This document shows, in pieces, positions 6,001-9,000 of a stretch of 15,412 nucleotides of DNA (within the stretch, counting starts at the first letter, position 1; the number at the start of each line of letters is the position of its first letter). This DNA is from a virus (lineage: Duplodnaviria; Heunggongvirae; Uroviricota; Caudoviricetes), in the IMG/VR virus record IMGVR_UViG_641736224_000028, positions 1 through 15,412 of that record. The stretch is one strand, 5' to 3'. Made by a program: the position numbers.

Positions 6001-9000
6001 GATGTAACTCGCTAAACCATGCAGTTATGATCCCTGCCGCATAACCTTCATCAGCCACATTTTCAAAAATAAATTTCCTTATATATCAGAATCATACTTC
6101 GTAGAGTTAATAAATCACCAAAATTCGTACCAATAGTTCTTGATAATGTCGAACTATTGGTTCATTATTATCGTCGTCAGCAGGACGCATTACTCACCAG
6201 GGCGGTGAATATACAACGATTCGAATATGAATCTACGGCGCTGACAAAGCGCAATAACCAAAGTGAACTTTGGGGTGTGGTGAAGGGTTCATGGACGGGA
6301 ATATGTCGCACGTAAAGCGGCGAGGCCTGCGGGACTATTGCCGAATTGAAGTAGGCCGAAACAGGTCGAAATGGGTCTCCCACCTACCACACCACCAAAG
6401 TTCATCAGGAGGTCTATATGACACGCAGAACTCAGTTCAAAGGCAATTCACGTTCTCGTCGTCGTGAGCGTTTAAAGGCAAAGGCATTAGCTAACGGCGT
6501 GCTGGCCCGCGAAGAAGCAATAAGTTCAGAAGTATTACACCGCCCTACTCTAAGCAGAGCGCAGATTCAGGCTAAAGGTACTCACGAAACGCCTGAGCGC
6601 ATAGAAGACGCTAAGCCAATTAAGTTCATGGCACAGGACGTGATCTGGCAACAGAAAGAATACAGACGCAATCTGGAGCGAGCGGCCATTGTGTACGCGA
6701 ATGAGTTTGGACATAAGCAACCAGAAACTGGTGTATGTCTTCCAAACGTAGCTCTTTACGCGGCAGGCTACCGGAAATCAAAACAACTGACGGCAAGATG
6801 ACTTGTGTTGGTCGCCAGAAAATGAAATTAGGCAGCAAACCACTTATTTGAGAGGAATTAATATGTCATCAATCCGCTTAACTACGAGAATGAAAGAGGA
6901 AATCGCTCGTAACGCTTTAATTAAGTCCGGGGTGTTCACTGAACTTGAAGAAGTAACAAAGTTAAAGAACCAGCTTGCACTTGACGCCAGAGTTATTGCG
7001 TTTGGCGGTAAAAAGAAAACTGAGGAAGTGGATCGGTTATCATCCAAGTTGGTAGCTATAAGTGAAGAACTTGGAAAGATGGGATGTTCATTTTACTCAT
7101 ACGATGTTAGTTCTACTTCAATTTATCTGACTGTATCTGGCAGAAGGGTTGGATGGCATTCATATGGGAAAGACGGCAACGGCAAAGATATATTGCTCCC
7201 TACTCCGATCAAAGATAAATGCATGTTTGACGCAGAACACGAAATAACAAAAAGGTTTGATGAAATCTGCGCATTGCAACAAAAACTTGAAGCCAAGAAA
7301 AAGGATATCGAATCAAATGTATGGGCTGCTTTGAACTCAGTCACAACAGTTAAGCGACTTATTGAAGTTTGGCCTGAAAGCAAAGAATTGCTACCAAAAG
7401 AAGCAGATAAAGCAAGTACAGCACTTCCTGCTTTACGGGTAGAAGATTTGAATAAGATGATTGGACTTCCTTCCGAGGCCGCATAGTCGGCCTTTATTTT
7501 TGGCATAAACAACAGAATAAATACTGCACTGTGTATTCATTCCAACGAGTGAATACACGGAGCAATGTCGCTCGTAACTAAACAGGAGCCGACTTGTTCT
7601 GATTATTGGAAATCTTCTTTGCCCTCCAGTGTGAGGGCGATTTTTTATCTATGAGGATATGAATAGATGTCAAACATCAAAAAATACATCATTGATTACG
7701 ACTGGAAAGCATCAATAGAAATTGAAATCGACCATGACGTAATGACAGAGGAAAAACTTCACCAGATTAATAATTTCTGGTCAGACTCTGAATACCGACT
7801 CAATAAACACGGCTCTGTATTAAATGCTGTATTAATCATGCTGGCGCAACATGCTCTGCTTATAGCAATTTCAAGCGACTTAAATGCATATGGTGTTGTG
7901 TGTGAGTTCGACTGGAATGATGGAAATGGTCAGGAAGGATGGCCTCCAATGGATGGTAGCGAAGGAATAAGAATTACCGATATCGATACATCAGGAATAT
8001 TTGATTCAGATGATATGGCTATCAAGGCCGCCTGAGTGCGGCTTTACCGCATACCAATAACGCTTCACTCGAGGCGTTTTTCGTTATGTATAAATAAGGA
8101 GCACACCATGCAATATGCCATTGCAGGGTGGCCTGTTGCTGGCTGCCCTTCCGAATCTTTACTTGAGCGAATCACCCGTAAATTACGTGACGGATGGAAA
8201 CGCCTTATCGACATACTTAATCAGCCAGGAGTTCCAAAAAATGGATAAAACACTTATGGCTATCCAGACTAAATTCACTATCGCCACTTTTATTGGCGAT
8301 GAAAAGATGTTTCGTGAGGCCGTCGACGCTTATAAAAAATGGATATTAATACAGAAACTGAGATCAAGCAAAAGCATTCACTAACCCCCTTTCCTGTTTT
8401 CCTAATCAGCCTGGCATTTCGCGGGCGATATTTTCACAGCTATTTCAGGAGTTCAGCCATGAACGCTTATTACATTCAGGATCGTCTTGAGGCTCAGAGC
8501 TGGACGCGTCACTACCAGCAGATCGCCCGTGAAGAGAAAGAGGCAGAACTGGCAGACGACATGGGAAAAGGTCTGCCCCAGCACCTGTTTGAATCACTCT
8601 GCATCGATCATTTGCAACGCCACGGGGCCAGCAAAAAAGCCATTACCCGTGCGTTTGATGACGATGTTGAGTTTCAGGAGCGCATGGCAGAACACATCCG
8701 GTACATGGTTGAAACCATTGCTCACCACCAGGTTGATATTGATTCAGAGGTATAAAACGGATGAGTACAGCACTCGCAACGCTGGCAGGGAAGCTGGCTG
8801 AACGTGTCGGCATGGATTCTGTCGACCCACAGGAACTGATCACCACTCTTCGCCAGACGGCATTTAAAGGTGATGCCAGCGATGCGCAGTTCATCGCATT
8901 GTTGATCGTCGCCAACCAGTACGGCCTTAATCCGTGGACGAAAGAAATTTACGCCTTCCCTGATAAGCAGAACGGCATCGTTCCGGTGGTGGGCGTTGAT

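Follow-up and report, generated by a model that had tools for sequence, protein, structure and literature searches.

The interval between N and cIII in the early-left operon of lambdoid prophages varies in gene content, and the question raised here is which genes occupy it in one such prophage and what they might do. The window analysed is the whole of positions 1 to 15,412 (15,412 nucleotides) of the IMG/VR virus record IMGVR_UViG_641736224_000028, which by sequence comparison is the immunity and early-left (pL operon) region of a lambdoid, Stx1a-converting prophage. An earlier reading, made from the sequence alone, had placed two open reading frames (ORFs) of 207 and 122 amino acids in this interval, and both are present where they were reported (ORF1 and ORF2, Table 1). 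That reading recognised no domain with confidence in either, an assessment that has to be replaced: ORF1 is a full-length member of the Pfam family Nmad5 and ORF2 is the Ea10 protein of phage lambda. The interval is, as far as comparison of sequences goes, ordinary lambdoid mosaic DNA consisting of an Nmad5-family cassette, the small RNA (sRNA) PreS with the terminator tL2a, and lambda ea10.

These identities and this layout are close to certain. The features are also already known and annotated, and RefSeq already applies the names Nmad5 and DUF2528. The sequence record thus gains nothing new, since twelve deposited Stx1a-converting phages match the 1.9-kb stretch 6400-8300, in which both ORFs lie, at 100% identity, and family names exist for both genes. 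The value of the locus is as a pointer to two common early genes of lambda-type phages, ea10, which is found in lambda itself, and the Nmad5 gene. The explanation that best accounts for the interval as a whole combines the layout with N-dependent expression from pL and with ORF1 as an early protein that modulates the host, and it is favoured with somewhat better than even confidence.

ORF1 and ORF2 in a mosaic interval

ORF1 matches the Pfam profile Nmad5 (PF18757) with an E-value of 4.3e-71 and a score of 239.7 bits (cut-off 27), with residues 4-203 aligned to profile positions 1-206 of 206. It also matches phrog_1965 (E 6e-83), and identical or near-identical proteins are named "Nmad5 family putative nucleotide modification protein" in RefSeq. 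The reading frame runs from an ATG at 6863 to a TAG stop codon at 7484-7486. This start is preferred over a longer ORF beginning with TTG at 6803 because a ribosome-binding site, GAGAGGA, lies ahead of the ATG and because all homologues start at the same methionine, with MSSIRLT.

ORF1 is functional, as indicated by a ratio of nonsynonymous to synonymous substitution rates (dN/dS) well below 1 (0.13-0.33 against the most diverged Escherichia coli alleles) and by a large family of stand-alone proteins. A search with the Nmad5 profile among 1.84 billion representative proteins gave 2309 clusters (50% identity) at E <= 1e-3, and nearly all of the best 150 clusters consist of stand-alone proteins of about 200 amino acids. 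Conservation is highest in two C-terminal motifs, TxK[KR]LIxxWPE and LNxxIGLP. Of 5426 complete E. coli genomes, 209 (about 4%) carry the complete gene region. The AlphaFold2 (AF2) model of ORF1 has a predicted local distance difference test (pLDDT) score of 84.9 and is helical with a small beta region, in the order three long helices, beta region, a further long helix and, at the C-terminus, a small helical domain. Comparison of this model with other folds gave neither a solved relative nor an enzyme-like one. NCBIfam has no match for ORF1 or for Ea10.

ORF2 is identical to lambda Ea10 (J02459) in 121 of 122 residues (99.2%) and matches the Pfam family DUF2528 (PF10800) with an E-value of 3.7e-47. 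It lies in a block, window 7483-10532, that matches lambda by blastn at 97.7% identity through ea10, cIII, kil, gam, bet and exo. Because it belongs to this block, ORF2 is no foreign insert. The assignment of the interval to the ral/sieB slot of lambda therefore stands in part: it is the variable N-cIII slot and ORF1 sits at the sieB-ral place, but the proposal that ORF2 is likewise a host-interaction moron has to be given up.

The borders of the ORF1 segment were located with blastn. On the left, phage 933W matches window 3981-6852 without gaps at 99.8% identity and the junction falls at 6852/6853; on the right, the junction with lambda is at 7482/7483 and that with 933W at 7525/7526. Position 7483, three bases before the ORF1 stop codon, corresponds to the first base past the ral stop codon in lambda, and since the lambda match begins only there, ORF1 is a swapped-in cassette at the sieB-ral position. 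Relative to 933W the exchange covers 6853-7525, a segment in which that phage has the unrelated L0079; ORF1 as a truncated or relabelled L0079 was considered and is ruled out, the two proteins being unrelated.

The cassette is bordered by the linkers CTTATTTGAGAGGAATTAAT on the left (window 6841-6862) and GGCCTTTATTTTTGGCATAAA on the right (7488-7510), both of which recur in other prophages. In strain FREC5, where Ral adjoins Nmad5, GGCCTTTATTTT is found on both sides of the Nmad5 gene (locus L002, 3330-3364 and 3985-4020). Recombination between shared linkers would produce such a pattern, and the arrangement looks like a substrate for cassette shuffling.

The slot was compared among 80 IMG/VR loci of E. 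coli prophages that carry ORF1 at 95-100% identity. The order across these loci is (N) (Ral) Nmad5 (L0079 or a phrog_1273 protein) PreS (Ea10) cIII kil gam. PreS is present in 75 loci; Ral occurs together with Nmad5 in 11 and L0079 in 9, while Ea10 follows in 14 and cIII comes directly after PreS, with no Ea10, in 27. It follows that ORF1 and Ea10 are modules independent of each other and that ORF1 is no functional substitute for Ral. Two readings of the pair fall with these counts: that the two genes form a unit, which the independent assortment rules out, and that ORF1 stands in for Ral, to which it is adjacent in the 11 loci and in FREC5.

Terminators, PreS and transcription from pL

Intrinsic terminators had been proposed near 7476..7500 and 7621..7646, and a scan of 6000-8500 for hairpins followed by T-runs recovered both, among five sites in all (2.0 +/- 1.3 in shuffled sequences). 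The first has a 7-bp stem at 7475-7494 followed by TTTATTTTT to 7501, with a folding energy of -11 kcal/mol (z -1.6). The final ORF1 codons supply its 5' arm, the 3' arm and the T-run belong to the linker shared with lambda, and the lambda counterpart does not fold. Judged from this composition, the first terminator is a by-product of the join between cassette and linker. E. coli Nmad5 cassettes retain it, with a substitution confined to the loop.

The second terminator has an 8-bp stem at 7619-7640 followed by TTTTTT to 7646. It is tL2a, the 3' end of PreS, because all 125 positions of window 7526-7650 agree with the ral-ea10 spacer of lambda. In lambda this spacer encodes LPR1, renamed PreS, which ends at tL2a; it is an Hfq-bound sRNA of about 88 nt that is processed to about 68 nt, is produced in the lytic cycle and up-regulates the host gene dnaN (bioRxiv 10.1101/2024.10.31.621285). 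The sequence-only reading was thus right to see terminators between the two genes but overlooked the sRNA, of which the second terminator is a part. The fold of 7526-7652 has an energy of -46.3 kcal/mol (z -5.5), and the perfect hairpin directly upstream of PreS (Table 1) may be the processing site that creates its 5' end. Among complete E. coli genomes, 2242 have a match of any kind and 209 the full ORF1 region, and at least 2033 hold some part of the PreS spacer without the whole ORF1 region.

The identity of 99.8% to 933W makes its annotations of tM (5930-5951) and nutL (6186-6252) transferable to the window. By homology with lambda and 933W, transcription would start at pL, and N loaded at nutL would let RNA polymerase pass the terminators. 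The suggestion that expression is N-dependent is in keeping with this, as the terminators would belong to an N-antiterminated operon. A consensus scan of the plus strand found no sigma-70-like promoter from 6169 to 8035, which fits expression from pL alone. By the same homology, ORF1, Ea10 and PreS would be produced only after loss of the repressor. The minus-strand ORFs within the interval have no PHROG match.

This arrangement bears on whether ORF1 could be a prophage-borne exclusion or defence gene like sieB that shields the lysogen from other phages. ORF1 does lie at the sieB position of lambda, in a slot that is a variable accessory region. However, it has no promoter-like site upstream and lies downstream of N in a repressed operon, and its homologues are common in strictly lytic phages. 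Nor is there any similarity to SieB or Ral, as tblastn of all ORFs from the lambda N-ral interval against the window gave nothing better than E 0.1, and the PADLOC defence models have no match at E <= 1 for ORF1 or Ea10. An exclusion gene is hardly to be expected here.

Table 1. Features of the N-cIII interval and its borders (window coordinates)
Feature	Position	Strand	Basis and remarks
tM terminator	5930-5951		933W annotation transferred
Candidate pL, sigma-70-like promoter match	6140..6168	+	Consensus scan only: TTGATA, 17-nt spacer, CATTAT; between tM and nutL
nutL, N-utilisation site	6186..6252	+	Annotation transferred from 933W
Antiterminator N, 933W type	6418..6801	+	Pfam N_peptide PF25694, E 1e-15; phrog_271; annotated N in 933W
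Swapped-in cassette with ORF1	6853..7482	+	blastn junctions
ORF1, 207 aa, Nmad5-family protein (PF18757, phrog_1965)	6863..7486	+	Pfam, PHROG, RefSeq name
First terminator-like hairpin and T-run, overlapping the ORF1 stop codon	7475..7501	+	Scan and fold
Perfect 12-bp hairpin directly 5' of PreS	7531..7558	+	Fold; identical in lambda, 933W and PhiR12_4
sRNA PreS (LPR1), about 88 nt	7559..7646	+	Lambda identity; 5' end approximate, inferred from published length
tL2a, 3' hairpin and U-tail of PreS	7619..7646	+	Scan, fold, lambda identity, paper
ORF2 = ea10, 122 aa, DUF2528 (PF10800, phrog_646)	7667..8035	+	Lambda identity, Pfam
Third terminator-like hairpin, past ea10	8059..8084	+	Stem 8059-8078, -14.2 kcal/mol, z -3.1; inside lambda-homologous block
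cIII thermoregulator RNA element	8095..8153	+	Rfam RF01804 Lambda_thermo, 88.5 bits, E 7e-21
cIII, 46 aa	8108..8248	+	Residues 1-46 identical to lambda CIII

Possible roles of ORF1

ORF1 might be a non-enzymatic early protein, made from pL, that binds and modulates a host protein of DNA metabolism or of DNA-directed defence. The analogy is with its operon neighbours Ral, Gam, Kil and CIII, and this reading is tentative, well short of an even chance. A host-interaction protein is suggested by the position beside Ral in 11 of the 80 loci and by results from Dhillonvirus, the sole experimental data on the Nmad5 family. There, cloning of nmad5 failed with apparent toxicity, a single Lys-to-Glu change gave escape from the Tmn defence, and deletion of the gene gave no such escape (PMC11846954). 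In the homologue from phage BF9 (254 amino acids), Lys215-Lys216 align with Lys164-Arg165 of ORF1 in the TxK[KR]LIxxWPE motif, and the escape position (K216 in the short form) probably lies in the core surface of the family.

A broader version would have the stand-alone Nmad5 proteins as widespread non-enzymatic early phage proteins that bind a DNA-metabolism or immune component of the host and whose conserved TxK[KR]LIxxWPE surface is sensed by Tmn-like systems. This is speculative and more doubtful than not by a wide measure; if true, the family as a whole could be studied conveniently in E. coli through the lambdoid Nmad5 copy beside Ral.

The gene neighbourhoods of Nmad5 in other phages were taken from IMG/VR. 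A first scan gave only close E. coli relatives, and a second, seeded with a distant member, gave diverse contexts, from which three genes on each side were recorded in 22 diverse lineages. Family A DNA polymerase was found four times, and DUF2800 nuclease, Enc34 ssDNA-binding protein, AAA_24, primase zinc ribbon and PD-(D/E)XK nuclease twice each; RecT (once), an exonuclease, N peptides and an S24 repressor were also present. Thymidylate synthase, kinase and aGPT-Pplase genes were absent within three genes in all 22 lineages. The consistent association of Nmad5 is therefore with early DNA replication and recombination modules and not with modification genes.

With such neighbours, mostly polymerase, primase, nuclease, ssDNA-binding and RecT-type genes, ORF1 could instead be an accessory of replication or recombination that partners DNA-metabolism proteins of the phage, such as Red or Erf recombinases, single-strand-binding protein or family A polymerase. 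In one cluster of 25 loci the Nmad5 gene has an Enc34-type ssDNA-binding protein on one side and a family A polymerase on the other, the replication initiator comes directly after it in Vibrio phage Athena1, and in the window it is upstream of gam, bet and exo. On the other hand, ORF1 occurs with Red, Erf and PolA modules and with the host-dependent O/P type, and such very different replication and recombination systems argue against a specific phage partner. The gene is also dispensable in Dhillonvirus, where it stands alone in a head-gene module, and in Stx2a-converting phages in which it is disrupted by an insertion sequence (IS). An accessory of this kind is thus unlikely.

In Klebsiella and Serratia prophages Nmad5 is the next called gene past the repressor, and in Providencia it also comes after the repressor, with a gap of 1.1 kb without a called gene between them; it stands ahead of kil or of a nuclease/ssDNA-binding/PolA module. 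The Klebsiella prophages (L006 and L008, approximately 4890-5000) have a gap of about 400 bp without a called gene between repressor and Nmad5. This gap contains a hairpin-forming sequence (CCAGTTGTTAACTGG...), and no N gene was called there.

Several observations weigh against host modulation as the role of ORF1 and against the explanation of the locus that includes it. For the 22 lineages of the neighbour census the ORFs were called crudely, and most of the genes recorded there have no Pfam hit. The Tmn-escape residue was mapped on phage BF9 and not on the phages studied in PMC11846954, and the function of the terminators and of antitermination is inferred from the sequence only. An IS element interrupts the Nmad5 gene in 48 Stx2a phage records (tblastn), so that those phages can do without it. 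The Nmad5 family owes its name to an association with nucleotide-modification genes, as judged from the Pfam name and later papers. In Yuavirus (M6-like) phages its gene lies in a thymidine-hypermodification cassette, beside a 5-hydroxymethyldeoxyuridine (5-hmdU) kinase and a thymidylate-synthase-like gene, and in an N4-like Ithacavirus it adjoins ThyX and is also next to a DNA polymerase. A role connected with nucleotide or DNA chemistry therefore keeps some probability.

The element in the Stx2a-converting phages splits the gene after codon 36 (window 6966-6969). It is a 1309-bp member of the IS3 family (L178, 1672-2980, LC616041.1) with HTH_Tnp_1 and rve ORFs and a 4-bp target duplication.

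The Yuavirus and Ithacavirus contexts, together with the full-length Pfam match, speak for ORF1 as an accessory factor of base modification. It might, for instance, direct a modifying enzyme, possibly of the host, to replicating phage DNA or hold it there as a scaffold. The association with modification genes is, however, present only in the relatives from these two groups. No DNA-modification enzyme was found among the other ORFs of the 15-kb window scanned against Pfam, nor near Nmad5 in the 22 lineages or in the Klebsiella, Providencia and Serratia prophages. The study of thymidine hypermodification in M6 defined a pathway set, also used as the reconstitution mix, of gp51-gp55, which excludes the Nmad5 gene, and the literature found contains no member of the family with demonstrated base-modification activity. 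The M6-type and Dhillonvirus proteins share just their C-terminal part with ORF1, and the modelled fold of ORF1 is without an enzyme-like relative. A part in modification is accordingly rated improbable; ORF1 is probably no base-modifying enzyme in this phage, and the words "nucleotide modification" are probably misleading as a name for the lambdoid Nmad5 copies. Host modulation by a non-enzymatic early protein remains the preferred, if tentative, reading of ORF1.

Ea10, the surrounding genes and comparison with known systems

Ea10 is an abundant, non-essential, acidic early protein. In lambda it is made in large amounts and was formerly mistaken for Kil, it is non-essential in a CRISPR interference (CRISPRi) screen, and it has one partner only in a two-hybrid map. 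The AF2 model (pLDDT 94.5) is a compact beta-beta-alpha4-beta domain, and the isoelectric point (pI) is 4.3. No protein with an oligonucleotide/oligosaccharide-binding (OB) fold is among its fold matches, which leaves the old label "ssb" unsupported. As far as the model can be trusted, the lack of an OB fold and the acidity rule out that Ea10 is a single-strand DNA-binding protein, and the name "ssb" is probably misleading. It has also been considered that Ea10 might be a soluble SPFH (stomatin/HflK/HflC)-like domain acting with CIII on the control of CII stability by FtsH-HflKC, which is very improbable. Both Ea10 and the Nmad5 protein are easily approachable in lambda or K-12 genetics.

Distant DUF2528 homologues are found in Mu-like prophages of Salmonella, Serratia and Oceanobacter, where the gene comes immediately after transposase A and MuB and precedes Mu Gam or GemA/Mor. 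Both lambda-like and Mu-like phages, two unrelated types, thus have a member of this family among their early genes.

The match to Lambda_thermo at cIII is expected, since the cIII leader is of lambda type. The cIII protein has 46 amino acids compared with 54 in lambda because a C-to-A change, TCA to TAA, drops the last eight residues. In the overlapping kil frame this substitution replaces Gln3 by Lys.

On the plus strand, which is the direction of pL transcription, the genes run from cI (3084-3791) through three accessory genes of 933W type, among them the stk kinase, to N, followed by ORF1, the spacer, ORF2, cIII, kil, gam, bet and exo, with excisionase and integrase further along. The accessory block between cI and pL (3852-5929, with the 99.8% match to 933W from 3981 on) contains a DUF3024 protein, a 153-aa protein without a Pfam hit, the eukaryote-like Ser/Thr kinase Stk and a 54-aa ORF. 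The other genes of the window correspond to annotated genes of lambda and 933W.

The two ORFs had been described as more AT-rich than the lambda-like genes that follow. The guanine and cytosine (GC) content is indeed 40.4% in ORF1, 40.0% in the spacer and 39.0% in ea10, compared with 52-53% in bet and exo; N has 49% and gam 48%. The description holds to that extent, but ea10 is itself a lambda gene, and cIII (44.8%) and kil (36.1%) are also below bet and exo. The last genes of the accessory block have 35% GC, which is lower than the interval of ORF1 and ORF2.

Among known systems, ORF2 corresponds to lambda Ea10, with the same length, the same place between tL2a and cIII, and a difference in one residue. 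PreS and tL2a are equally lambda-like in that the 125 identical nucleotides include the terminator hairpin and U-tail and lie directly upstream of ea10; unlike in lambda, the gene upstream is Nmad5 in place of ral, and PreS is known here from sequence identity. ORF1 shares with lambda Ral and SieB the position between N and tL2a and the linker past the stop codon. It has no sequence similarity to them, and since Ral and Nmad5 stand side by side in 11 of 80 loci they are not alternatives. L0079 of 933W (phrog_1636) occupies the same cassette slot between identical flanks but is an unrelated protein of 156 amino acids without a Pfam hit. The Nmad5 proteins of M6-like phages and Dhillonvirus have the C-terminal core and both of its motifs in common with ORF1, whereas the match is limited to the C-terminal 90-100 residues or so at 30-33% identity. 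Unlike the gene in the M6-like cassette, ORF1 stands alone in the pL operon of a temperate phage, without modification enzymes.

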